From: Burkholderiales bacterium | GTDB lineage: Bacteria > Pseudomonadota > Gammaproteobacteria > Burkholderiales > SG8-41 | Reading direction: 5' to 3' | DNA length: 64,000 nucleotides | Assembly (NCBI GenBank): GCA_030684405.1 | Contig: JAUXYA010000031.1 | Span: 5,483 to 69,482 of the forward strand | Shown: positions 5,793-60,979 of the stretch, piece after piece | How positions within the stretch are numbered: position 1 is the first letter of the stretch | Layout of the letters: every line of letters begins with the position of its first letter | Program-made: the position numbers and the translations under genes | The notes under the pieces: generated by a model | The model's input: the letters and a program-made list of their open reading frames with translations, nothing else | Database searches by the model: none | Told to the model about the DNA's origin: nothing

Positions 5793-6488
5793 TCAGGGCA
5801 GCTGTGCGCCGTTCATGCGCATCAATATGGTCTGGGTACGACGCTGCAGATAGGCGGTGTTGCTGTCCGGTCCATAACGTCGCGGGCTCGGCACCACCGC
5901 AGCCAGGCGTGCTGCCTGCTCGGGCGAGAGTGCGGCCGCGGTCGTACCATAGTGGTGACGCGCCGCGGCCTCGGCGCCGAACACGCCATCGCCCCACTCG
6001 ATGACATTGAGATAGATTTCGAGTATGCGCCGCTTGTTCATCACGGTTTCAAGCATCACCGCAACCACGGCCTCCTGCGCCTTGCGCCACCAAGCCCGCT
6101 CTCCGGAGAAAAAAAGGTTCTTCGCCAATTGTTGAGTGATGGTCGAGCCACCGGCGACGATTTCGCCCTCGCGCAGGTTTTTCTCGTAGGCCTTCTGAAT
6201 ACCGTCCCAGTCGAAACCATTGTGGGTCGCGAATTTCGCGTCTTCGGCAGCCACCACCGCGCGCTTGAGGTGTATGGAAATCCGCTGGTACGGTACCCAT
6301 TGGTGACGCAGCCGCGCGCGCGGATCGTCCTCCTGCAGTATCTGCAGGCGCGCTCGCATGAAAGCCGTGCTCTCGGGGTTGTGGCTGTTCCAGTGCCAGA
6401 CGTGAATCAGGAACCAGAACTGCAGCGCCGTCAGCGTGATCAGCGCCATCAGGATGATGCGCCAGATCCAGCGCAGCAGGAATCTCAT
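5793..6488 (-). CDS. mtgA: monofunctional peptidoglycan glycosyltransferase
   Basis: 231 aa with an N-terminal TM segment and GT51 motifs (AAEDAKFATHNGFDW, GGSTITQQLAKN). Confidence 0.9.
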   Translation of the reverse strand: MRFLLRWIWRIILMALITLTALQFWFLIHVWHWNSHNPESTAFMRARLQILQEDDPRARLRHQWVPYQRISIHLKRAVVAAEDAKFATHNGFDWDGIQKAYEKNLREGEIVAGGSTITQQLAKNLFFSGERAWWRKAQEAVVAVMLETVMNKRRILEIYLNVIEWGDGVFGAEAAARHHYGTTAAALSPEQAARLAAVVPSPRRYGPDSNTAYLQRRTQTILMRMNGAQLP

Positions 6489-41345: not shown

Positions 41346-44278
<2,933 letters not shown>

Positions 44279-49830: not shown

Positions 49831-50304
49831 TCAGTGGTGTTGATGGCTCTTTTTGGGCTGACCCTTGAGGTCACGCACTTCGACTGACAGTTCGACAGCC
49901 TCGCGCTTCTTGTCCGCCAATTCGAAAGTCAGCAGCAGCGGAACGCGGTCGCCGGGAGTAAGCGGCTTGTCGAGCTGCATCAGCATCACGTGATAACCGC
50001 CAGAGGCGAGCTTGACGCTTTTGCCGGCGGGAATATCGATGCCGGCGACCGGGAACATCCGCATCACTCCGTTCTCCATGCGCATGTTATGCACCTCGGT
50101 GACTTTTGCGACGGGGCTGGAAGCCGCAACCAGTCGCGCATCGGTTTTAGCGCTGAGTTCCATGAATGCACCCGTGGCACTTTGTCCCTGCACGGTGCCG
50201 CGGATCCAGGCGTCCCTGACGGTCACGGTTTGTGCCTGTGCGGCCGCTGCGAAAAGTAAGGCCAGCAGCAAGCCTGCGGATTTCAGTAAATTGCGATGAA
50301 ACAT
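49831..50304 (-). CDS. periplasmic copper chaperone PCu(A)C (DUF461)
   Basis: 157 aa with a signal peptide, Met/His motifs (VHNMRMENGVMRM, GGYHVMLM) and a His-rich tail. Confidence 0.85.
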   Translation of the reverse strand: MFHRNLLKSAGLLLALLFAAAAQAQTVTVRDAWIRGTVQGQSATGAFMELSAKTDARLVAASSPVAKVTEVHNMRMENGVMRMFPVAGIDIPAGKSVKLASGGYHVMLMQLDKPLTPGDRVPLLLTFELADKKREAVELSVEVRDLKGQPKKSHQHH

Positions 50305-50401: not shown

Positions 50402-50767
50402 TCAGGCGCGCGGCGGTGCGCGCGGATGCAGTGGCTGCAATGCCGCGGAATCATGAACAACAAATGGGGAACGGGCCGCAGGCAAAAGCAGCTCCGGAAT
50501 CAACGCCACTACTTGGAATACCGGTATCGCTACAGGCGGCAATACCGTGGCCAGGCACATCAGGCAATGCGCGGACTGGAGTTTGTTATGTGGCGCTCCC
50601 GGCAAAGACGCCTCGCCCGTGACGCTGACATCGACACGGCAGATCGTCGCGTAGGCCGTCGGATCGACGGCGTGACGCGCCACCGCGAGCATCGGAAATG
50701 CGGTCGCGAACAGGAACGCCAGCAAGGCGCTCCCGGCGATCAACCGACGGTGGATGAACAGGCGCAT
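50402..50767 (-). CDS. DUF2946-like small membrane/periplasmic protein
   Basis: 121 aa with an N-terminal hydrophobic segment and the HCLMC motif recalled for DUF2946 proteins, which accompany PCuAC and TonB-dependent copper receptors. Confidence 0.6.
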   Translation of the reverse strand: MRLFIHRRLIAGSALLAFLFATAFPMLAVARHAVDPTAYATICRVDVSVTGEASLPGAPHNKLQSAHCLMCLATVLPPVAIPVFQVVALIPELLLPAARSPFVVHDSAALQPLHPRAPPRA

Positions 50768-50822: not shown

Positions 50823-52142
50823 TCACAGCACGTAACGCGCGAGGTCCTCGCTCTGTGCCAGGTCCTTCAGCCGCGCATCGACATAGGCCGCATCGATGGT
50901 CACCGTCTCCTTGCGCCGGCCGGCGTTGAAGGACAGGTCCTCGAGCAGGCGCTCCATCACCGTGTGCAGCCGCCGCGCGCCGATGTTCTCGGTGCGTTCG
51001 TTGACCTGCCAGGCGATTTCCGCCAGCCGCTTCACTGCATCGGGCGTGAACACCAGTTCGACATCTTCGGTTTTGATCAATGCCTCGTACTGGCGAATCA
51101 GGCAGGCGTCGGTGCTGGTGAGGATGCACTCGAAATCGTCGACCGTGAGATTCTGCAATTCGACGCGGATCGGCAGGCGGCCCTGCAGTTCGGGAATCAG
51201 GTCCGAGGGCTTCGACAGGTGGAATGCGCCGCTGGCGATGAACAGGATGTGGTCGGTCTTGATCATTCCGTACTTGGTGGTCACTGTCGTGCCCTCGACG
51301 AGAGGCAGCAGGTCACGCTGCACGCCCTGGCGCGAAACGTCGGCGCCCGACACCTCGGAACGGGTGGCAACCTTGTCGATTTCATCAATGAACACGATGC
51401 CGTTCTGCTCAACATTGGTGACGGCCTCGAGCTTCAACTCCTCGTCGTTGACGCGCTTTGCCGCCTCCTCGTCGATCAGCTGCTTCATCGCCTCGGCGAT
51501 TTTCATTTTGCGCATCCTGCGCCTGCCCGCGCCCAGGTTCTGGAACATGCCCTGCAGCTGCGAAGTCAGGTCTTCCATGCCCGGCGGGGTCATGATTTCC
51601 ATCTGCGCCGGCGCGGCGGCGAACTCGATCTCGATTTCGCGCACATCAAGTTCGCCCTCGCGCAGCATCTTGCGGAATTTCTGGCGTGTCGCCGACTCGG
51701 TATCGGGAACGCCATCGCGTGCCGGCGTCAGCAGCGCGTCGAGTACGCGCTCCTCAGCCCCATCCTGAGCCTGGTGCCTGACCCGGCGCATCGCCTCGAC
51801 GCGTGCGTCCTTGATCGCCGCATCAACCAGGTCGCGGATGATGGTGTCGACATCACGCCCGACATAACCCACCTCCGTGAATTTGGTGGCCTCGACCTTG
51901 ATGAACGGCGCATTGGCGAGCCGCGCCAGGCGCCGCGCGATCTCGGTCTTGCCGACCCCGGTCGGCCCGATCATCAGGATGTTCTTCGGCGTGATCTCCT
52001 GGCGCAGCGGGTCCGGCACCTGCTGCCGCCGCCAGCGGTTGCGCAACGCAATGGCCACCGCGCGCTTGGCGGCGTTCTGCCCGACAATATGTTTGTCGAG
52101 CTCGTGGACGATTTCCTGCGGGGTCATGGGGGTCATGGGCAT
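50823..52142 (-). CDS. hslU: ATP-dependent protease ATPase subunit HslU
   Basis: 439 aa: [16 protein letters not shown], Walker [16 protein letters not shown]. Three possible ATGs (52142, 52136, 52127), none with an SD. Confidence 0.97.
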
Positions 52143-52218
52143 GAGCGGTGAGCGGTGAGCGGTGAGCGGTGAGCGGTGAGCGGTGAGCGGTGAGCGGTGA
52201 GCGGTGAGCGGTGAGCGG
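52142..52218. repeat. perfect heptanucleotide tandem repeat (TGAGCGG)x11
   Basis: Counted directly from the sequence: 11 uninterrupted units over 77 bp. The first T is the last base of the hslU start codon complement. Confidence 0.97.
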
Positions 52219-52243
52219 TGGATTGGACGGCTTCTGTTACTGT

Positions 52244-52285
52244 CGGTTCACTACTTACTGCTTACCCTTCACCGCTCACTGTTCA
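52244..52285 (-). repeat. array of six stop-initiated heptads following the hslV stop
   Basis: Minus-strand reading: TGAACAG TGAGCGG TGAAGGG TAAGCAG TAAGTAG TGAACCG. Partly complementary to the CCGCTCA tract downstream. Confidence 0.7.
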
Positions 52286-52289
52286 CTGA

Positions 52290-52841
52290 CTAATCCAGCA
52301 CCTCAATCAGATGCTGCTGGTTGGTGTAAATGCAGAGATCGCCGGCAATCTCCAGCGACTTCTTGACGATGTCGGCGGGTGCAAGATCGGTATTTTCAAG
52401 CAGTGCACGGGCCGCGGACTGGGCATAGGCACCACCGCTGCCGATGGCAACCAGACCGAATTCCGGCTCCAGCACGTCGCCATTGCCGGTGATCACCAGC
52501 GAATGTTCGCGGTCAGCCACTAACAGCATGGCTTCCAGGCGCCGCAGCATGCGGTCGGTGCGCCAGTCCTTGGCCAATTCCACTGCGGAGCGCATCAGGT
52601 TGCCCTGGTGCTTTTCCAATTTCGATTCGAAGCGCTCGAACAAGGTGAATGCGTCGGCGGTGCCGCCCGCGAATCCGGCAAGGATGCGGTCCTGGTAGAG
52701 GCGGCGGATCTTGCGCGCGGTGGCCTTGATCACGATGTTGCCCAGTGTCACCTGGCCATCGCCGCCGAGCGCCACGTGGTTACCGCGCCGGACGGAAAGA
52801 ATGGTCGTGCCGTGAAAAACTGTATCGGTCATGGGATGCAA
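52290..52841 (-). CDS. hslV: ATP-dependent protease peptidase subunit HslV
   Basis: [27 protein letters not shown], with a short N-terminal extension as recalled for other betaproteobacteria. An alternative ATG is at 52832. Confidence 0.95.
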
Positions 52842-52931: not shown

Positions 52932-53654
52932 TCAGGACTCCAGACGGAACGATACCGGCACACGCACCCAGGCTTCAACGTTTTCCACACCGCGCCGTGC
53001 CGGTGCAAAACGCCAATCCTTCACCGCATCCAGCGCCGCGCGGTCGAGCGCACGCGAGCGACTCGACTGGTCGACCTCGACTTTCAATGGCGTGCCGTCG
53101 CGCCCGACCAGCACCCGCAGCAGCACTGTGCCCTCTTCGCCGTTGCGCCGCGCAAGCGCGGGATAAGCCGGTGGCGGATTGCGCAGGTACGCCGCATTGA
53201 AAGCGGGCGGCGTGATCACGGGCGGGGTCGCTTTCGCAATCGGCGCGGAAGATGTTGCGGGAGGAGATGGAGATGGCTCCACCGATGAGGGTGCAGCTGC
53301 GGACGCAGGTGCAGGCGCAGCTGCGGTTGCGAGTTCCGGCACCGGGGCAACGGGCAGTACCGCGGCTTCCCGCGCGATCACCGGCTCTTTCTTGCGCGGC
53401 ACTGACGGAGATGTGGCAGGAACAGCCGGTGCTGCCGCCTTCCGTGGCAGCGCTGTCGCCGGTGGCTCGGATGCCACCATCACTACATCCAGCAGCGGCA
53501 TCGCGGGTGCGGGTGCGGGTGCGGGCACTGACACCCGCCATCCCGGCACAAAGATCAGCAGCAGGCCATGCGCAGCCACGCTCGCCAGCAGGCAGATGGC
53601 CAGCGTGTGCCGGGAAATGCGAAATCGGTCGGCCATGGGGGTCGCGCGGATCAA
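52932..53654 (-). CDS. tonB: energy transducer TonB
   Basis: 240 aa with a TM anchor, a Pro/Ala-rich spacer and a C-terminal domain (PPAYPALARRNGEEGTVLLRVLVGRDGTP...). Confidence 0.8.
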   Translation of the reverse strand: MIRATPMADRFRISRHTLAICLLASVAAHGLLLIFVPGWRVSVPAPAPAPAMPLLDVVMVASEPPATALPRKAAAPAVPATSPSVPRKKEPVIAREAAVLPVAPVPELATAAAPAPASAAAPSSVEPSPSPPATSSAPIAKATPPVITPPAFNAAYLRNPPPAYPALARRNGEEGTVLLRVLVGRDGTPLKVEVDQSSRSRALDRAALDAVKDWRFAPARRGVENVEAWVRVPVSFRLES

Positions 53655-53787
53655 GGGAGGGCATTATCCGGCAGATCGGCGACGCCCGACAAACCGCCGC
53701 GGGCCCGACTGCAAGCCCGCGACGGCAGGAACATTACTAAGAGCGCACACCAGGCAGCGCAACGCTCATTTCATCCTGTCAGGCACT

Positions 53788-55887
53788 CTAAAACTGCCCG
53801 CGCAGACCGAGCAGCGCGCTGCGCCGGCCGAGTGGCGCGACGTCCTTGAGGAAAGACACGTGGTTGCGTGCTTCCTCGTTGAGCAGGTTGATCCCGCGCA
53901 GGAAAGCTTCCAGACGCAGGCCATTCGCCGGCAGGCGGTAGGTCAGCGCGGCATTGAGCATCGTGTAACCGTCGGTAGGGCGCTCACCGGTGGCCACGCG
54001 GTCCTGGCCGTCATGCACAGTCGCATCGACGCGGGCACTGAGGCGGTCGCGGCGATACTCCACGCCGACGCCATAACGCCAGGGCGCGATGCGCGGCAAC
54101 GGCCGTCCGTTACTCCGGTCGTCGGCGCGCACATGACTTGCATGGAGCAGCAGATCCAGGGTGCCCCCGCGTTCGAACATGCGGAAGCGCGCCTCGCCCT
54201 CGATGCCGCGGAAACGCGCCGACACCGCACGATAGGCAAACTCCGGCAGGATTTCCTCGCCGGTGTTGAGCGACGTGCCGTCGCCGGCATCGGCCGGATT
54301 CAGTTCGCCGTCTGCACCGCGGGTGTTGCCGCTGTCGAACAGCCCGAGGTAATTGCTGAAACGGTTGTTGAACACGGTAATGCTGCCCGAGTGTTTCCCG
54401 GATTTCAGGCGCAGGGAAATGTCGATGGCCTTCGACTTCTCCTTGCCGAAAGTGCTGTTGCCCACTTCGTAAACGCCGGTGGCAGCATGCGGGCCGTTGG
54501 CGTAGAGCTCGTAATAGGTCGGTGCGCGCTCGGTGTAGCTGCCGTTCACGGCCAGCGCCAGACCCGGCATGAAGCCCCACACCGCACCCAGCGCGCCGCT
54601 GTTGCCGCTGAAATTGCGCGTCTGCGCAGCACCGAAACGCGGATCGACGGCGCCAAACGGTACGGCGCCGCCGCCTTCGCTGCCGACCTCGGTGCGTTCG
54701 TGGCGGCCGCCGAAAGTCAGCTTGAAGCTGCCGAGCGGCAATTCCTCGAAGAAAAACACCGACTTTGCGTTGGTACTGGTCCCCGGAACAAAGGCCTCGG
54801 CACCCAGCGCCGAAAAATCGAAATCCCTTAGCTGCAGGCCGATCGCGCCGCGCAACGGGCCTATTTCACCGTGCACCGCCTCGACATGCAGATCCTTGCC
54901 CTTGTTGCGGAAACGTGTCGCCGCAACACCCGCATCGAGCTCGGTATGTTCGTAATCGGTGTGGCCCATCTTGAATTTCAGGGAACGGATCGCCTGTCCC
55001 AGTTCGCGCACTTCGCCGGCGAGGTCCCAACGGCTGCTCTGCATGTCGATGGTCACGTCGGGTTCAGCCACAGTGCCATACCTGGTGTTGAATCCGGAAC
55101 GCGAGATGCCGACATAACCCTGGGCCCAGGTATGCGACAGGCCGATGGCGCCACCGTCGGATCGCGACGCGCTGTTGGGCAAAACGCCCTCCGCTTCGAC
55201 CGGCTGGGGATCAGCGGCACGCAAGCGCGCCGATCGCGCGAAACCCTTGATGCGCAGGTCATCGGTGTCGCGGGTATGGACATCGGCGTGCAGGGCAAGG
55301 CTGCCGTTGCCGGCCTCGAACACGATACCCGTTGCCTTCTCGCGCGCAGCGCCGCCGAAGCGCGTCTCGACACGGCCTGTGACGCCACGGATCGCGGCCT
55401 GGGGAATGCGGTTGTCGATGACGTTGACTACGCCGCCAACGGCATTGCCCCCATAAAACAGGGCTGCAGGCCCACGCACTACCTCGGCTCGCTCGACGAC
55501 CAGTGGGTCGACGGCGACGGCGTGGTCGAAACTGAGCGACGAGGCATCCAGTGTGCCCGCGCCGTTCTGCAGTATGCGGATGCGGTCGCCATCGAGGCCG
55601 CGGATGACCGGACGGCTGGCATTGGGACCGAAGCCGGTGGCCGCGACGCCGGGCAAGCCGTCGAGGGTGTCGCCCAGCGTGTTGCCACGCCGCTGGAACA
55701 ATTCGTCACCCTGCAGCAGGGATGCCGGGGAAGCGAGTTCAAACAGGTCACTGCCCAGCGGGTTGCCGGTGACCACAACTTCGGGCAGCGTCGTCGCCGG
55801 TGGGGCGACTTGCGCATGTACGGTTGCTGCATGCACAGCAACCGCCATCGCGGCCAGCGCAAAAGACTGGCGTTTCAATTTCAACAT
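53788..55887 (-). CDS. TonB-dependent outer-membrane receptor, ZnuD/OprC-like metal receptor (metal not assignable)
   Basis: Starts at the internal ATG with signal peptide MLKLKRQSFALAAMAVAVHAATVHA. Plug motifs (IRGLDGDRIRILQNG, SFDHAV, VVRGPAALFYG). HTDYEHTE loop. Terminal RGQF. Confidence 0.9.
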   Translation of the reverse strand: MLKLKRQSFALAAMAVAVHAATVHAQVAPPATTLPEVVVTGNPLGSDLFELASPASLLQGDELFQRRGNTLGDTLDGLPGVAATGFGPNASRPVIRGLDGDRIRILQNGAGTLDASSLSFDHAVAVDPLVVERAEVVRGPAALFYGGNAVGGVVNVIDNRIPQAAIRGVTGRVETRFGGAAREKATGIVFEAGNGSLALHADVHTRDTDDLRIKGFARSARLRAADPQPVEAEGVLPNSASRSDGGAIGLSHTWAQGYVGISRSGFNTRYGTVAEPDVTIDMQSSRWDLAGEVRELGQAIRSLKFKMGHTDYEHTELDAGVAATRFRNKGKDLHVEAVHGEIGPLRGAIGLQLRDFDFSALGAEAFVPGTSTNAKSVFFFEELPLGSFKLTFGGRHERTEVGSEGGGAVPFGAVDPRFGAAQTRNFSGNSGALGAVWGFMPGLALAVNGSYTERAPTYYELYANGPHAATGVYEVGNSTFGKEKSKAIDISLRLKSGKHSGSITVFNNRFSNYLGLFDSGNTRGADGELNPADAGDGTSLNTGEEILPEFAYRAVSARFRGIEGEARFRMFERGGTLDLLLHASHVRADDRSNGRPLPRIAPWRYGVGVEYRRDRLSARVDATVHDGQDRVATGERPTDGYTMLNAALTYRLPANGLRLEAFLRGINLLNEEARNHVSFLKDVAPLGRRSALLGLRGQF

Positions 55888-55981
55888 GATGTTCTCCAAT
55901 AGACGTGACAGGCCGAGCGCAGCCTCAAGGGCGCGCTTGATCCGGAAAAAAAGGTATGACCGGCGGTAGCCGGGAATGCGT

Positions 55982-56362
55982 CTAGGAGAGTGCGGGTGGC
56001 GCGCGGGAATCGTAAGGAACCGTGGAGGTTCCTGCTGTTGCGACACTGCCCGCAGCAATCAGTACCGCGCCGGCAGCGTCAGTAGCGACGCTGCGGTAAC
56101 CACCGGGGGCGCCGCCGAGGACTTCGCTGTAAAGAAGGTCGAATCCGCAGTCTGCTGACCACTCGCCGAAGGGGGGCTCATGGTCATGCTCATGGGCATG
56201 ACCATGAGCATGCGCGGCATGCGCCTCCGCTACGCCATGATGGGCAACATGCAGCAGCGCATGAGTCAGCGCGCCATGCTGGGCAAACAGCAGCAGCGCG
56301 ATCAGCGCCGCATGCAGCAGGCGCGGCGGGCGCGGCGGGCGCCGCAGCCAGGCATTGCTCAC
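55982..56362 (-). CDS. His-rich small protein, DUF2946-like
   Basis: 126 aa with an N-terminal hydrophobic segment, then HVAHHGVAEAHAAHAHGHAHEHDHE and a single Cys. Confidence 0.5.
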   Translation of the reverse strand: MSNAWLRRPPRPPRLLHAALIALLLFAQHGALTHALLHVAHHGVAEAHAAHAHGHAHEHDHEPPFGEWSADCGFDLLYSEVLGGAPGGYRSVATDAAGAVLIAAGSVATAGTSTVPYDSRAPPALS

Positions 56363-56365
56363 TGC

Positions 56366-56875
56366 TTACCTGCCAACGGCTGCGGCATCGGTCAGCCGGT
56401 AATAGAGCCCCATCTCGTCATTGCGCAGCAGCGTGAGGCGCCCGGAGATGACGATCGGCTCGAAACCGTATTTCACCGGCGTCTTGGCCCGTACCTCGAC
56501 CACCTGCTCGGGGCCGCCGGGCATGCAGAAGGCGCAAGTCGGCGGCAGGGCCACCAGCAGAAAACGTTTCTGCCGATCACCCATTTCCAGCGGCATCATG
56601 AAACCCTGCAGCTTCACTTCCTGGCGATCAAGCGCAGCCACGCTCTTGCCGAAGTCGGGAATGAAGCGGTCCTTCTGCTTCAGTGTCTTCACGTCGGCCA
56701 GCGTCTTCCACGACACCACGCCCTTGATCTCGGGCAGCGGCTTCGCCGCATAAGGCGAAGGCGGCAGGTTGGCGTCAGGATCGCGCTTCATCAACTCGCC
56801 GGAACCCGGCTGAAAACCCTGGGCAGCCGCCGGAATGGCCGCTGCCAACATCATCGCAATCATCCAGGTTTTCAT
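56366..56875 (-). CDS. DUF3299-like periplasmic protein
   Basis: 169 aa with a signal peptide and ...VKLQGFMMPLEMGDRQKRFLLVALPPTCAFCMPGGPEQVVEV... as recalled for DUF3299 partners of MacB-type ABC systems. Confidence 0.7.
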   Translation of the reverse strand: MKTWMIAMMLAAAIPAAAQGFQPGSGELMKRDPDANLPPSPYAAKPLPEIKGVVSWKTLADVKTLKQKDRFIPDFGKSVAALDRQEVKLQGFMMPLEMGDRQKRFLLVALPPTCAFCMPGGPEQVVEVRAKTPVKYGFEPIVISGRLTLLRNDEMGLYYRLTDAAAVGR

Positions 56876-56910
56876 AAAATTCCTTTATAATCAAGTACTT
56901 AAAAAATTAG
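56873..56910 (-). promoter_or_regulatory. AT-rich leader motif copy 2 (upstream of DUF3299 gene)
   Basis: Minus-strand reading: CTAATTTTTTAAGTACTTGATTATAAAGGAATTTTATG. The plus strand contains AATCAAGTACTTA, a perfect match to the IHF consensus WATCAANNNNTTR. Confidence 0.4.
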
Positions 56911-57183
56911 TCAGTGGCGATGCTTCATGCCGCAGTATTTCCCGATCGCCAGTCCTTTGCAATCCTTGGCGAGCTGGGCGTGGCACTCCTTCTCCGACTT
57001 CCCGCCTTCCAGGCATTTCGCCGCGTTGAGGTGGGCCTCGGCCATCGCGCGGTGATCGGCAACGTCTTTCTTGATTTCCGCGGCGCTGTGCGGCTTATCG
57101 CCCTTCTGCTGTGCATGGACCGGCAGGCCTCCAAATATGATGAGGGCGGCGATAAGCGGTGCTGCGAACAATTTCAGCTTCAT
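56911..57183 (-). CDS. small periplasmic Cys/His-containing protein, unknown function
   Basis: 90 aa with AAGGAA SD and a signal peptide. The mature part has 4 Cys and several His (HRAMAEAH...KCLEGGKSEKECH...DCKG...YCGMKHRH). Confidence 0.5.
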   Translation of the reverse strand: MKLKLFAAPLIAALIIFGGLPVHAQQKGDKPHSAAEIKKDVADHRAMAEAHLNAAKCLEGGKSEKECHAQLAKDCKGLAIGKYCGMKHRH

Positions 57184-57231
57184 GTTCTTTCCTTTCGATG
57201 TAAAAAAACAGCATAAAAATTTCCAGTAACT

Positions 57232-58446
57232 TCAACCCCGGGCCAGCGTGCCGGCGATATCAGTGCGATAGGCGCGCCAGGCCGGCAGCAGCGCGGCCAA
57301 GATGCCGGTGGCCAGCGCCAGCGCGACGACCCAGAGTTCTTCCATCACCCAGGCAAACCCGGTGATCTCGATCTGCTGCGCCGCTTTCAGCACATGGCCC
57401 AGAACTTCCGCCATCGCATGACCGAGCACCAAGCCCAGCGCGGCACCGGCGGCCGCCAGCAACAGGCCCTCGAACAGCAGCAGCAGCAGCAACCGGCGCG
57501 GACTCGCGCCCAGCGTGCGCATCACCGCCAGGTCGTAACGCCGCTCGTTGAGCGCGTTGTAGAGCGCGATGAACACGCTCAGACCGGCGCTGAGGATCAG
57601 CACCAGCGCAAAGGCGCGCAGCACATCGACACCGACGCCGATCAGGCTGAACAGCCGTGCGGTCTCGTACGCCGGTGACGCCGCCTGCATGCCGGTGTTG
57701 TTGTTGATGTAACGCGGCAGGATGGCCACCGCCAGCGGAGAGGAATACTGCAGCAGCAGCGCAGTGAATTCCTTCTCGTCATCGCCGAGTTGCTGCTCGA
57801 TATTGGTCACGTCCTTGATGTCATGGTGCTCGGCATGCACCACCCATACGCTCTGGTAGGACGTCAGTACCAGACGGTCGAGTACGCTGCCGCTGCGTTC
57901 CAAAACGCCGACGACCCGATACGGATGATCTTCATGGGCATGCCCGCCACTGTCGCCGAGACCGTGCACGCCGTGGAATTCGGCGCCGACGCCGAAGCCG
58001 GTGCGCGCGGCGACTTCGGCGCCGAGCACCGCCTCCATCGGCGCCTGCCACATCCGGCCGGCGGCGATTTTTGCACCGTAGTGCGCCACATAATCCGGCG
58101 TCGTGCCAACGATGCGATAGCCGCGGTAACTGTCGCCGAGCGCCAGCGGAATGGCTTTTTTCACCATGCGGTGGCGCGAAATCTCCTGCGCTTCCTTCCA
58201 GGAGATGTTCCCGGTCGGCACATCGATGTGGTAGATCGCCGACAGGATGATCTGCATCGGACTGCCCTTGGCGCCGACGGCGAGGTCGATGCCGCGCGCG
58301 TCGCGCTGCATGCGCTCCTCGAGCTGGTGGGTCGTCAGCAGCAGCAACACGATGGTGCCGACACCCAGCGCCAGCAGCAGCACATTGAGCAGCGTCGCCA
58401 GCGGCCGCGCGCGCATGTACGAAAAACCGACGGTTGCGATATTCAT
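57232..58446 (-). CDS. ABC transporter permease, FtsX/MacB type
   Basis: 404 aa with 4 TM segments and a large periplasmic domain between TM1 and TM2. Confidence 0.85.
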   Translation of the reverse strand: MNIATVGFSYMRARPLATLLNVLLLALGVGTIVLLLLTTHQLEERMQRDARGIDLAVGAKGSPMQIILSAIYHIDVPTGNISWKEAQEISRHRMVKKAIPLALGDSYRGYRIVGTTPDYVAHYGAKIAAGRMWQAPMEAVLGAEVAARTGFGVGAEFHGVHGLGDSGGHAHEDHPYRVVGVLERSGSVLDRLVLTSYQSVWVVHAEHHDIKDVTNIEQQLGDDEKEFTALLLQYSSPLAVAILPRYINNNTGMQAASPAYETARLFSLIGVGVDVLRAFALVLILSAGLSVFIALYNALNERRYDLAVMRTLGASPRRLLLLLLFEGLLLAAAGAALGLVLGHAMAEVLGHVLKAAQQIEITGFAWVMEELWVVALALATGILAALLPAWRAYRTDIAGTLARG

Positions 58447-59081
58447 GCCCGCGCCCCCAGATCGTAATGCTGTGCGACACGCGACTTGATGCGCTGGTCA
58501 TGGGTGGCGATCAGCAGCGTCGCATTGCAGGCTGTGGCCTGCGCCTGCAGCAACTCCAGCGCCTGCAGGCAGCGCGCGTCGTCAAGGTTGGAGGTCGGCT
58601 CATCGGCGAGCAGCAGCTGCGGACGGTTGACCACCGCGCGTGCGATGGCGACACGCTGCGCCTGGCCGAAAGACAGTTCGTGCGGCTTCGCGCTGCCCTT
58701 GTCCGCAAGGTCGAGTCCGGCGAGCACCTCATCGACGCGCTGCCGGTCCTGCGGCAGTCCGGCGAGGTACTGCGCGAGCATCAGGTTGTGTGCGACGTCG
58801 AGGCTCGGGATCAGGTGCAGCCGCTGCAGCACGATGCCGATGTGTTGCCCGCGGAAGCGGTCCAGCAGCTGCGCGCCCAGCGCGCCGAGATCCTGTCCCG
58901 CCACGGTTACCGTGCCGGCCGCCGGCCGCAGGATGCCGGCCAGCGCATGCAGCAGCGTGGTCTTGCCGCTGCCCGAAGGCCCCAGCAGCAGCCAGTGCTC
59001 GCCTTGTGCGGCCTGCCAGGCATCGACGTGCAGCACTTCGGCCTCATCGTAGGCATGGCTTACGCCTTGCAATTCGAACAA
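58443..59081 (-). CDS. ABC transporter ATP-binding protein
   Basis: 212 aa: Walker A GPSGSGKTT, signature LSFGQAQRV, Walker B LLLADEPT. Confidence 0.9.
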   Translation of the reverse strand: MFELQGVSHAYDEAEVLHVDAWQAAQGEHWLLLGPSGSGKTTLLHALAGILRPAAGTVTVAGQDLGALGAQLLDRFRGQHIGIVLQRLHLIPSLDVAHNLMLAQYLAGLPQDRQRVDEVLAGLDLADKGSAKPHELSFGQAQRVAIARAVVNRPQLLLADEPTSNLDDARCLQALELLQAQATACNATLLIATHDQRIKSRVAQHYDLGARA

Positions 59082-59083
59082 AA

Positions 59084-59470
59084 CTATTCCTCCTCAATGC
59101 GAGTCCAGACCGGAAAGGGATCAGGATATGAACTCCAGGCAGCCGGGCCCTGTGCCATCTCGACTGTGTTCAGAAGGCAAGCCTCCAGAGACATTTCGAT
59201 GGCTTCCCGGTCCATGCCGATACCGATAAACACCAGCTCCTGCCGGCGATCGCCCCAGGTTTCGACCCACTTGGCATCGATTAGTTTGCGGTATTCCTCG
59301 TCCTGCGGCCAGTTTTCGCGTTCGACCGCCACCCACCACAGTCCCGCGGCTGCATGCCGGCAGACGCCGCCGGCCTGCGACCACGATGCGGCGATGTCCA
59401 TGCGCGAGGCCAGCCAGACGAACATGCCCTGGCCACGCCTCTCGATTCTCAGGTAGCTGATGGAATTCAA
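59084..59470 (-). CDS. stand-alone CobW C-terminal domain protein (COG0523 C-domain only)
   Basis: 128 aa. TTG start with a GGGAG SD, 8 nt after the ZIP stop. GMFVWLASR...WSQAGG...WWVAV...WPQDEE...WGDRRQELVFIGIGMD...LEACLL...PDPFPVW matches the C-terminal domain pattern of CobW/YeiR/ZigA-type GTPases. No G-domain is present. Confidence 0.65.
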   Translation of the reverse strand: MNSISYLRIERRGQGMFVWLASRMDIAASWSQAGGVCRHAAAGLWWVAVERENWPQDEEYRKLIDAKWVETWGDRRQELVFIGIGMDREAIEMSLEACLLNTVEMAQGPAAWSSYPDPFPVWTRIEEE

Positions 59471-59478
59471 TGGCTCCC

Positions 59479-60189
59479 TCAGTGTGAATGCAGGAACATA
59501 TGGGAAAGCAGGATGGTGCCGATACCCGCCGCGATGAACACGATCTGCAGCACGCTGCTGCGAATATCGCTGCGACGATGCATCTCCGGGATCAGATCGG
59601 CCACGGCGATGTAGATGAAACTTGCGGCGGCGAGCACCAGCACGTACGGCGTCGCCTCGCGCGCGTCATCCAGGGCAAAGTAGCCCAGCACACCGCCGGC
59701 AATCGACATCAGGCTGGAGGCAAAATTGAGCAGCAGCGCTTTCCGGCGGCTGTAGCCGGCGTTCAGCAGCACCATGAAATCACCCACTTCCTGCGGAATT
59801 TCGTGGGCGATGATGGCCAGTGTGGTCGCCACACCCAGAGCGGTGTCGGTCATGAACGCGGCAGCGATCAGGATGCCGTCGACGAAATTATGGAAACCGT
59901 CACCGATGACGATCAGCATTCCGGTCCGGCTGTTGTGGCCAGTGCTCTCGCCAACGTGATCATGGCCGTGGCGCCACAGCGCCGCCTTCTCCAGCAGGAA
60001 AAATCCTAGCAGTCCGGCGAGCGTTACCGCGAACAAACCTTCGATGCTGTCAGCCTGGGAAAACGCCTCCGGCAGCAGGTGCAGGAAGGCGGCGGCGAGC
60101 AGGACACCCGCGGCGTAACTCACCATCGGCGCGAGCCAGCGCGAGAGCAACGCAAACGACAGCAACCCGGCAGCCAGCAGGCTCAGCAC
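59479..60189 (-). CDS. ZIP-family divalent metal transporter
   Basis: HEIPQEVGDF and HNFVDG motifs. The first canonical start is GTG 60189, but conserved-looking TM1 residues continue in frame upstream to the stop at 60250-60252. Confidence 0.85.
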   Translation of the reverse strand: MLSLLAAGLLSFALLSRWLAPMVSYAAGVLLAAAFLHLLPEAFSQADSIEGLFAVTLAGLLGFFLLEKAALWRHGHDHVGESTGHNSRTGMLIVIGDGFHNFVDGILIAAAFMTDTALGVATTLAIIAHEIPQEVGDFMVLLNAGYSRRKALLLNFASSLMSIAGGVLGYFALDDAREATPYVLVLAAASFIYIAVADLIPEMHRRSDIRSSVLQIVFIAAGIGTILLSHMFLHSH

Positions 60190-60252
60190 ACCACCGGCCA
60201 GCGTCGCAGCGAGAATCCAGTAAAAAACGGTATCGATGACGATCTCCCGTTA

Positions 60253-60269
60253 TTGCAATTGAGTTGCGT
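60253..60269. promoter_or_regulatory. candidate operator TTGCAAT-TGA-GTTGCGT upstream of the ZIP gene
   Basis: 7-3-7 inverted repeat abutting the SD region of the ZIP gene. The same architecture occurs twice in the zur-yidD intergenic region. Confidence 0.4.
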
Positions 60270-60301
60270 TTCTGGGCAAAAAAAACGGAATGGCTGATTG
60301 C

Positions 60302-60835
60302 TCAGTGCGGATGCAGGTGCGCTCCGGCCTTCCTGCGAACGGGTCCGCATTCGGCACACAGCCCCTTCACTGTCAGCTCGACTCGCTGCTGGCGATAACC
60401 GACGGGTAATTTCACGGCAGGGCCGCTTGTAACCGGATCCAGGCACAACACGTGCCCACAGTCACTGCACTGGAAATGCGCGTGCGGTCCGCGATGCGCG
60501 TGCTCCGCAGCGTTGAAACGCCAGACGCGATCATCTCCGGCAATCTTGTGGGCCAGACCCCGCTCGGTGAGCCACTCCAGCACACGGTAAATAGTCACAC
60601 GGTTAACCCCGAGTGATGCCGGTAGCCGCGACTCGACCTCTGTATGCGTGAGCGCGCGCTCCGCCGCGAACAATACGGTAAGCACTGCGATGCGCGGACG
60701 CGTCGTCCGCGCCCCGGTGCGGCGTATGGATTCTTCGGCGATGTCAGAAGCGTGGGTTTTCACGGCAGTATTCGTGTGGATTGCCGGATTAAAGCACAGG
60801 CCTACGCGGATCAAACAACCAGATGAATTATTCAT
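60302..60835 (-). CDS. zur: Fur-family regulator, Zur-like
   Basis: Winged-helix region (RPRIAVLTVLF...LTHTEV...VTIYRVLEWL) and two Cys pairs (CSDCGHVLC, CAEC). Neighbours are zinc-type genes. Confidence 0.8.
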   Translation of the reverse strand: MNNSSGCLIRVGLCFNPAIHTNTAVKTHASDIAEESIRRTGARTTRPRIAVLTVLFAAERALTHTEVESRLPASLGVNRVTIYRVLEWLTERGLAHKIAGDDRVWRFNAAEHAHRGPHAHFQCSDCGHVLCLDPVTSGPAVKLPVGYRQQRVELTVKGLCAECGPVRRKAGAHLHPH

Positions 60836-60923: not shown

Positions 60924-60979
60924 TTGCAACAAAGTTGCGATCATAGGCGTCCCTTTTGGTTTTCGCAACCTTGTTGCAA
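60924..60979. promoter_or_regulatory. two candidate operators: TTGCAAC-AAA-GTTGCGA (60924-60940) and TCGCAAC-CTT-GTTGCAA (60963-60979)
   Basis: Same 7-3-7 palindrome as at 60253. An extra TGCAAC half-site lies at 60911-60916. Located between the divergent zur and yidD. Confidence 0.4.

Follow-up and report, generated by a model that had tools for sequence, protein, structure and literature searches.

A candidate CruR-type arrest-peptide leader ahead of a ZnuD-like receptor in a modular, probable metal-starvation locus of an uncultured Burkholderiales lineage

CruR (DUF2946) family members are exported proteins encoded by upstream open reading frames (ORFs) that head TonB-receptor operons (PMC9426467). 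CruR of Bordetella pertussis (Bp2923) controls the TonB-dependent transporter BfrG; with copper the ribosome arrest is lifted and the receptor is turned off (PMC9426467), and the arrest itself has been shown (PMC12992588). In Bp2923, 45 residues lie between the metal motif and RAPP (PMC9426467). Both RAPP and RGPP are experimentally strong arrest motifs, and the C-termini of small exported proteins encoded upstream of TonB receptor and PCuAC genes are enriched in them (PMC12992588). The DUF2946/CruR leaders have so far been tied to copper (PMC9426467), and no paper that connects arrest peptides of the CruR type with zinc was found in a literature search. This study concerns a run of ten consecutive minus-strand genes at positions 52932-60835 of a 64,000-nucleotide stretch of DNA (referred to as the window) from an uncultured Burkholderiales lineage. 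One of these genes encodes a small His-rich protein, most likely an arrest-peptide leader of the CruR/DUF2946 type, and lies directly upstream of the gene for a TonB-dependent receptor.

Other parts of the locus also have described counterparts. The Zur regulon of Cupriavidus metallidurans reportedly contains zupT and a zur-cobW2-cobW3, cobW1 cluster, and the organism is said to have no ZnuABC. The ZrgABCDE system of Vibrio is Zur-regulated, includes the DUF3299 protein ZrgE and is treated as a zinc acquisition system (PMC9817125). PA4063-66 of Pseudomonas aeruginosa is Zur-regulated as well; PA4064/65 has been modelled as a MacB-type exporter, the loss of which leads to accumulation of intracellular pyochelin and cobalt (PMC11481552). 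No paper was found in the literature search on a locus that combines a Zrg-like ATP-binding cassette (ABC) system, a ZIP transporter, a ZnuD-like receptor, TonB and a Fur-family regulator.

Genes were called from the ORF listing and translation of the minus strand of 52932-60835, and families were assigned with Pfam and NCBIfam. The source genome is a 3.74-Mb assembly, 99.4% complete, and the sole known source metagenomes of the lineage are from groundwater, lakes and similar settings. We consider the array probably to be a zinc-limitation locus of one uncultured freshwater/groundwater Burkholderiales bacterium without ZnuABC, built of separable modules between yidD and tonB-hslVU and carrying a leader checkpoint on the receptor.

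The leader and the receptor

The elements that bear on the leader are as follows.

55982-56362, minus strand: CruR-like leader, His-rich, 126 amino acids (aa), with anchor, His tract, C72-G-F-D75, 44 residues and R120-A-P-P123
55893..55989, minus strand: predicted long-range RNA stem, in which the leader tail (55989-55979) pairs with the receptor Shine-Dalgarno (SD) region (55905-55893)
53788-55887, minus strand: TonB-dependent receptor (internal ATG start), Plug and barrel above the Pfam cut-offs

The C-terminus of the leader reads S-R120-A-P-P123-A-L-S-stop, leaving three codons between the arrest motif and the stop. In an alignment of 25 leader homologues P122 and P123 were invariant, R120 was found in at least 90%, and three residues and then a stop followed in nearly all. 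C72, D75, H34 and H38 were also invariant, with a variable His-rich tract ahead, and the distance from C-x-F-D to R was 44 residues, ungapped. The N-terminus is Arg-rich and continues into an invariant hydrophobic segment (L23-L25...A31), which reads as an export signal or anchor. The likeness to CruR extends to the layout of the genes, with a small exported-protein gene directly upstream of a TonB-dependent receptor gene and a spacer of about 90-160 nucleotides (nt), and to the succession of metal motif, 44-45 residues, RAPP or RGPP, two or three codons, and stop. Leader and receptor are 94 nt apart in the window, and the homologues have spacers of 75-135 nt.

The profile scores were less favorable than the motifs. 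An earlier reading of the window, made from its sequence and referred to below as the original prediction, had called the protein DUF2946-like and had cast it as part of a metal relay; the motif evidence agrees with the family label, whereas the score against PF11162 (DUF2946) was 13.3 bits, below the cut-off of 23.7, for a match spanning profile positions 4-117 of 117. At a relaxed threshold the leader and its homologue in the closest relative (locus L001) matched the full DUF2946 profile with an E value of 0.14, and at E<=1 the profile was found in 15 of the 25 homologues (best E 1.5e-4). The leader family has no CxxC, the invariant Asp of C-x-F-D replacing the second Cys. Related branches elsewhere in the order have the same N-terminal AQQGA..H...H anchor and keep CxxC, and the leader family looks like a derivative with an altered metal motif. 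Strong matches to a profile of the leader family were limited to the window's own family, and a large protein database held about 300 homologues of the leader, unnamed. The reading that fits the protein best is that of an arrest-peptide leader which regulates the receptor, not that of a relay component.

Neighborhoods were compared in a survey of 80 loci that encode relatives of the permease of the array, with homologues of every window gene placed on them; 57 of these loci belong to the window's lineage. Of 38 loci that were informative downstream, 26 had leader and receptor and 12 had neither. The two genes were together in 26/26 loci, and the leader never occurred without the receptor. A second His-rich leader, ending in RGPP, was seen in one relative (L011, 5866-6243) directly upstream of the ABC ATPase gene, with a GC hairpin and a U-run after its stop; the ABC operon of that locus appears to be controlled by a leader in the same manner as the receptor. 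In two genomes of the same genus the leader-receptor pair stands directly beside yidD.

The receptor was closest to ZnuD by both measures. Its best NCBIfam family was ZnuD (NF038289; 306 bits, below the cut-off of 950), and among structures in the PDB it matched ZnuD (4rdr) best by far, with 199 bits as compared with 28 for OprC. It shares with ZnuD of Neisseria meningitidis a metal-starvation context under Fur-family regulation, and differs from it in its sub-cut-off score and in that no His/Asp-rich loop is evident in the sequence.

On its tail side the long-range stem takes in the final two codons of the leader, the stop codon and three bases beyond it. Both the minimum free energy and the centroid folds of the window bury the GGAG of the receptor in this stem, which encloses a conserved GC hairpin right after the leader stop. 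Over 30 loci the tail/SD duplex had a mean z of -2.7. Cognate tail/SD pairs averaged -12.4 kcal/mol and non-cognate pairs -9.8 kcal/mol, and 0/5000 permutations reached the cognate mean (29 loci). The two sides fell into covarying classes, CUGUGA with CACAGGAG (8 loci), CUCUGA with CAGAGG (5 loci) and CUCC-stop with GGAGA (11 loci). In the 35 nt after the stop, a GC hairpin was present in almost every locus, with a mean z of -1.85 as compared with about 0 after four control genes. Because a U-run followed this hairpin in only some loci, intrinsic termination is not claimed.

These results suggest the following model, in which the leader would be exported co-translationally and its ribosome would stall at R-A-P-P. 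With Pro122 in its P site and Pro123 in its A site, the stalled ribosome would sit on the tail, including the last codons that pair with the SD, and would free the SD for translation of the receptor. Periplasmic metal, most likely zinc, would bind the His/Cys/Asp segment of the nascent chain and relieve the stall, as copper does for CruR; the stem would then re-form and the receptor would be shut off. Such a read-out by a stalled ribosome would follow SecM-like logic. It would differ from B. pertussis CruR, in which the read-out is Rho-dependent termination, and the leader also differs from CruR in lying mid-operon, behind the DUF3299 gene, and not at the operon head, in carrying CxxD and a His tract in place of CxxC, in its score below the Pfam cut-off, and in a context that points to zinc and not to copper. 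The covariation and the co-occurrence of leader and receptor suggest a second, translational checkpoint that responds to a metal, probably zinc.

The window holds both leader types, the copper type and the His-rich variant. A canonical CruR/DUF2946 ORF lies at 50402-50767 on the minus strand (121 aa; CLMC, 44 residues, RAPP-R-A-stop; PF11162 22.2 bits), 97 nt upstream of a PCuAC copper-chaperone gene (49831-50304, minus strand) and just downstream of hslVU. The fold of this CruR-PCuAC pair showed no tail-SD pairing, and an anti-SD design is not claimed for that pair.

The other genes of the array and their relatives

The remaining features are listed below in the order of the minus strand.

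60924-60940 and 60963-60979: palindrome copies S2 and S3 (TTGCAAC-N3-GTTGCAA), candidate operator upstream of the regulator
60968..60940, minus strand: sigma-70-like promoter TTGCGA-17-TATGAT for the regulator, bracketed by S2 and S3
60302-60835, minus strand: Fur-family regulator, PF01475 43.5 bits, two CxxC pairs, yidD divergent
60253-60269: S1, a third, degenerate palindrome copy in the regulator-ZIP spacer, candidate operator of a ZIP-led operon
59479-60189, minus strand: ZIP transporter, ZupT-like, PF02535 140.6 bits
59084-59470, minus strand: CobW_C-only ORF, 128 codons, CobW_C 49.7 bits
58443-59081, minus strand: ABC ATPase of FtsE/LolD/MacB type, PF00005 112.7 bits; best NCBIfam matches FtsE, LolD and DevA
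57232-58446, minus strand: MacB-type (type VII) permease, a separate polypeptide, PF12704 52.2 bits and PF02687 60 bits
56911-57183, minus strand: p90, an exported small helical protein of 90 aa, from a family without annotation
56366-56875, minus strand: DUF3299 protein, exported, ZrgE/PA4066 type, PF11736 41.4 bits (cut-off 22)
53692..53663, minus strand: promoter-like site TTGTCG-18-GATAAT for tonB, from a promoter scan, in the 133-nt gap
52932-53654, minus strand: tonB, TonB_C 82.7 bits, the best of three TonB_C genes in the genome

The original prediction had counted eleven genes; the ORF list gives ten, all of them on the minus strand and each where the prediction had placed it. The recomputed intergenic gaps from the regulator to tonB are 112, 8, 2, -4, 48, 35, 3, 94 and 133 nt, which reproduces the predicted spacing (-4 to 48 nt from the ZIP gene to the His-rich gene, then 94 and 133 nt). 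The labels ZIP, CobW_C, ABC ATPase, MacB/FtsX permease, DUF3299, receptor and TonB were all borne out above the Pfam cut-offs. Of the profile searches that the prediction had proposed, those for ZIP, CobW_C and DUF3299 succeeded and that for DUF2946 stayed under its cut-off, and the receptor came out nearer to ZnuD than to OprC. The combination of a Zrg-like ABC system with DUF3299, a ZIP transporter, a ZnuD-like receptor, TonB and a Fur-family regulator is present at the locus as described. The inventory was essentially right, and the inference of zinc from it was reasonable.

The label zur was right as to the Fur family (PF01475) only. Against the Zur equivalog NF008646 the regulator scored 26 bits, with a cut-off of 167, and all NCBIfam equivalogs were far below their cut-offs; structures of Fur, Nur, PerR and Zur were matched alike at about 25-31 bits. 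The regulator carries two CxxC pairs, and it is Zur-like by context only. It is accessory, being encoded in 6/19 genomes of the genus and absent from several genomes that are at least 95% complete. The palindromes precede only the regulator itself and the ZIP gene, and the position of S1 is kept in 9 related loci. A scan of the genome that allowed at most one mismatch found two further sites beyond the locus, both intragenic; there was no palindrome in intergenic DNA elsewhere in the genome, and no wider regulon can be inferred. In the related loci (976 kb), 22/23 sites with at most two mismatches lay directly upstream of the regulator or between the regulator and ZIP, and no palindrome was found in related loci without the regulator. 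Because the palindrome is restricted to the surroundings of the regulator, it would be the regulator's own site, and the visible regulon this locus. The genome encodes three Fur-family proteins, namely a canonical Fur, a Cys-less paralogue and the regulator of the window; a single Cys-containing Fur paralogue exists besides the latter.

The ZIP protein resembles ZupT but scored 71.8 bits against the ZupT equivalog, with a cut-off of 252. Its start is uncertain (59479-60252): with the first canonical start, GTG at 60189, the product is shorter by 12 residues than its TTG-started homologue in L001. The CobW_C ORF behind it matched only positions 283-390 of the 390 of the ZigA model (NCBIfam), and the N-terminal GTPase domain (cobW, PF02492) is absent, deleted relative to L001. 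In L001, the permease of which is 96% identical to that of the window, a 340-aa COG0523 gene, a 93-aa ORF and a 414-aa ZigA-like COG0523 gene lie between the ZIP and ATPase genes. The alignment is colinear until L001 position 3692 and resumes at 6029, a deletion of about 2.3 kb in the window with its junction at about 59418-59423. The CobW_C ORF is an in-frame fusion of about 17 codons of the post-ZIP spacer, with a TTG start, to the last about 111 codons of the GTPase gene. A 7268-nt contig from a groundwater run crosses the junction gap-free, and an 849-nt contig of an oil-sands study, unrelated to that run, crosses it as well. An assembly artefact was rejected as the source of the deletion because the contig of the independent study spans the junction, and its presence in two independent studies makes the deletion a real natural allele. 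The prediction had counted this orphan CobW C-domain as a component of the array; it is instead the remnant of a ZigA-like COG0523 GTPase gene, transcribed but with no chaperone activity expected. The 93-aa ORF of L001 (4838-5119), which lies between the two COG0523 genes and has no family match, was lost in the window's deletion.

The setting recalls that of C. metallidurans, also a betaproteobacterium without ZnuABC, in which a ZupT-type ZIP and COG0523 adjoin zur; the order in the relatives of the window is zur-ZIP-COG0523-x-COG0523. It differs in that the window's regulator is accessory within the genus, that its recognisable regulon is one locus, and that neither COG0523 gene is intact any longer at this site in the window strain. 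A ZnuA-family binding protein was not found in the 99.4%-complete genome.

The ABC system is like Zrg/PA4063-66 in having a separate ATPase, a MacB_PCD/FtsX permease and an exported DUF3299 protein in one operon, linked to a Fur-family regulator and zinc-starvation genes. It differs in that the window lacks genes for ZrgA/PA4063 (DUF2796) and ZrgD (DUF2607), in having p90 between permease and DUF3299, in the GC-richer TTGCAAC-N3-GTTGCAA as compared with the AT-rich Zur box of Vibrio (PMC9817125), and in that the operon of most relatives has its own promoter and no palindrome. No match to ZrgA/PA4063 (DUF2796) was found among the products of the array, the two small proteins being searched up to E 10. 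Periplasmic H161, H171 and H204 of the permease, together with H343, were invariant in 74 homologues from Burkholderiales, Alphaproteobacteria and Rhodothermales, and these histidines are a possible metal site of Zrg/PA4065-type permeases. In p90, C57, C67, C75, C84, H44, H51 and H88 were invariant in an alignment of homologues. The DUF3299 protein, which matched PDB 4hsp weakly, carries C114-x-x-C117, with C114 present in 75/75 homologues and C117 in 97%; its gene lies 35 nt downstream of p90 and follows the permease in 75 homologous loci. The conserved His and Cys ligands of the three proteins argue for direct handling of metal on the periplasmic side, and do not settle the direction of transport.

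The family of p90 had no match in Pfam, NCBIfam or the PDB, and at least 5501 database homologues are all unnamed. Its AlphaFold2 model was moderate (pLDDT, the predicted local distance difference test, 75), and Foldseek gave no fold match at E<1; a weak resemblance to the helical fold of CsoR/FrmR was not significant and was rejected. Throughout the lineage p90 is placed between permease and DUF3299. Some relatives have a second copy after the receptor, and in a Pelomicrobium genome p90 is a tandem-duplicated two-domain version (loci concerned: L018, 11761-12129; L019, 11727-12104; L062, 11594-12028).

In the survey the universal core was ATPase-permease-DUF3299, reaching Rhodothermales, Calditrichia and Alphaproteobacteria, and the core of the lineage was ATPase-permease-p90-DUF3299 (about 57 loci). 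The frame is constant in the lineage, with divergent yidD on one side and tonB-hslVU on the other, and what is inserted between them varies. Of the 49 loci that were informative upstream, 30 were without regulator, ZIP and COG0523, 4 had the regulator only (directly before the ATPase), 9 had regulator and ZIP, and 6, including the window, had regulator, ZIP and COG0523. The full gene set recurs in about five related species (L001, L003, L005, L006 and L049). In regulator-less relatives a conserved -10 element of the GGTAGAAT type lies ahead of the ABC operon; about 30 loci without regulator, ZIP or COG0523 (for example L018, L021, L037, L038 and L046) have such a GGTAGAAT / GGTAAAAT -10-like element 45-55 nt before the ATPase start, and no TGCAAC palindrome was found upstream of the ATPase in them. 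Most relatives have a palindrome-free promoter of their own; control of the core by zinc is not a general feature. Known zinc-starvation modules make up the array in variable combinations, and the single fused unit of the original prediction gave way to this picture of modules variably present among relatives.

The tonB gene followed DUF3299 directly in 11/12 downstream-informative loci without leader and receptor. Because tonB is kept in these receptor-less loci, it is a conserved neighbor of hslVU and not demonstrably the receptor's own, and its 133-nt gap and promoter-like site also speak against the dedicated TonB of the prediction. The genome holds three TonB-dependent receptors and, as listed above, as many TonB_C genes.

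One freshwater metatranscriptome contained identical RNA contigs on the genes for DUF3299, p90, permease and ATPase and on the CobW_C stump. They span 56418-59215 and run across the borders between stump and ATPase and between ATPase and permease; contig 58958-59215 places stump and ATPase on one transcript. Within 20 kb, further cover was found only near 42000-43100 and 52024-52687, and there were no RNA contigs of this assembly on the regulator, ZIP, the leader-receptor junction, receptor, tonB or hslVU, assembled RNA contigs being evidence of presence and not of absence. The metatranscriptome supports in situ expression of the core only, and expression of this ABC-p90-DUF3299 core may be comparatively strong there.

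Explanations for the locus

Our preferred explanation, a modular zinc-limitation locus, would involve two units. In the first, the regulator would repress its own promoter through the two TTGCAAC-N3-GTTGCAA palindromes. The second would be one operon of ZIP, COG0523 stump, ATPase, permease, p90, DUF3299, leader and receptor, and tonB would be a separately promoted conserved neighbor. ZIP would be the likely importer of the cytoplasmic membrane, and the MacB-type ABC system would work with the exported p90 and DUF3299 proteins on periplasmic-side metal. Zinc is proposed as the metal because of the ZigA-like stump, the two full COG0523 genes in relatives, a receptor nearest to ZnuD, the Zur regulation of the ZrgBCE/PA4064-66 homologues, the lack of ZnuA, and the presence of one other Cys-containing Fur paralogue.

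The idea that all ten genes form one transcription unit, with products that physically cooperate as an outer-to-inner-membrane zinc relay running from the receptor and a TonB of its own through the small periplasmic proteins to the ABC system and ZIP, draws on the co-directional genes, on the tight spacing from ZIP to the leader, which does fit one operon, on a terminator scan that found no strong intrinsic terminator inside the array, and on the recurrence of the full set in about five species. We regard it as unlikely. Its modules come and go independently in relatives, one of its supposed components is the stump of a gene and another, the His-rich protein, is built like a regulatory leader, tonB has its own promoter-like site and a synteny independent of the receptor, and RNA contigs cover the ABC segment only. 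A stronger case can be made for export. The ABC system, p90 and DUF3299 would then be no uptake route but would export, or extract from the periplasm, a substrate such as a metallophore or mis-bound metal, and the locus would mix import (receptor, ZIP) with export. The MacB periplasmic core and FtsX fold of the permease and the FtsE/LolD/MacB-type ATPase fit such a role, as do the exporter model of the P. aeruginosa homologue and the pyochelin and cobalt build-up after its loss; MacB-type ABC systems are not established importers, and that homologue is argued to export (PMC11481552). Set against this are the treatment of ZrgABCDE as an acquisition system in Vibrio (PMC9817125), the invariant periplasmic His triad, which suggests direct metal handling, and the finding of no metallophore-synthesis, MacA or TolC-type gene in or beside the array in the 80 loci, a limited test by homology to window genes. 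We rate export as possible, though somewhat doubtful.

It is also improbable, in our estimate, that copper or some other metal, for example cobalt, is the one handled by the locus, or at least by its ABC-p90-DUF3299-leader-receptor part, and that the leader senses that metal, as CruR does. The copper link of the DUF2946/CruR leaders so far (PMC9426467) speaks for it, and four invariant Cys in p90, the conserved CxxC of DUF3299, the canonical CxxC/RAPP CruR that heads the PCuAC gene in the same window, and the effect of PA4064-65 on cobalt content (PMC11481552) are all compatible with it. In the leader family, however, CxxC has become CxxD and a His tract has been gained while sister branches keep CxxC; the receptor is far closer to ZnuD than to the copper receptor OprC; the neighbors are ZIP, a ZigA-like COG0523 gene and a Fur-family regulator and not regulators of the CueR, CopRS or CsoR type; and the Zrg/PA4063-66 homologues are Zur-regulated. 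A more specific proposal goes with the zinc reading, and we advance it tentatively, as an idea that may well be right but that we hold short of probable: the leader would represent a lineage-specific branch of CruR/DUF2946, as yet without annotation, that switched from copper (CxxC) to zinc (Cys/Asp/His), its exported nascent chain would signal periplasmic zinc to the ribosome making it, and the stalled ribosome would unmask the receptor SD, so that zinc uptake through the outer membrane would be gated twice, by a cytoplasmic Fur-family repressor and by a mid-operon translational switch that senses the periplasm.

Several observations weigh against the zinc-limitation reading with its leader checkpoint. 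The leader is under the DUF2946 cut-off and has only the first Cys of CxxC. In the window itself the anti-SD duplex is modest (-7.8 kcal/mol, z -1.3), and the fold of the whole leader has a z of -1.15. The sequence gives no basis to call the regulator Zur, and most relatives run the ABC operon from their own promoter without a palindrome. The operon structure is deduced from spacing and the third palindrome; with partial contig cover a single long transcript is neither shown nor excluded, and an internal promoter is possible. Copper would be compatible, too, with the Cys-rich p90, the CxxC of DUF3299 and the canonical CruR-PCuAC pair at a distance of 5 kb.

As a whole the array is a recombination of zinc-starvation modules already known, and its orphan-domain gene illustrates that an apparently novel gene of this kind can be a recent deletion scar. 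The p90 family and the His triad of the permease are widespread, unexplained partners of Zrg/PA4064-66 systems, and they bear on the question of import versus export. The leader is the noteworthy element of the locus, a clean natural example of what appears to be a nascent-chain sensor of metal, of the CruR type, coupled to a receptor of the zinc type, with an altered metal motif and with covariation in favor of SD unmasking as the read-out. If this reading is true, metal sensing by arrest peptides would extend beyond copper.

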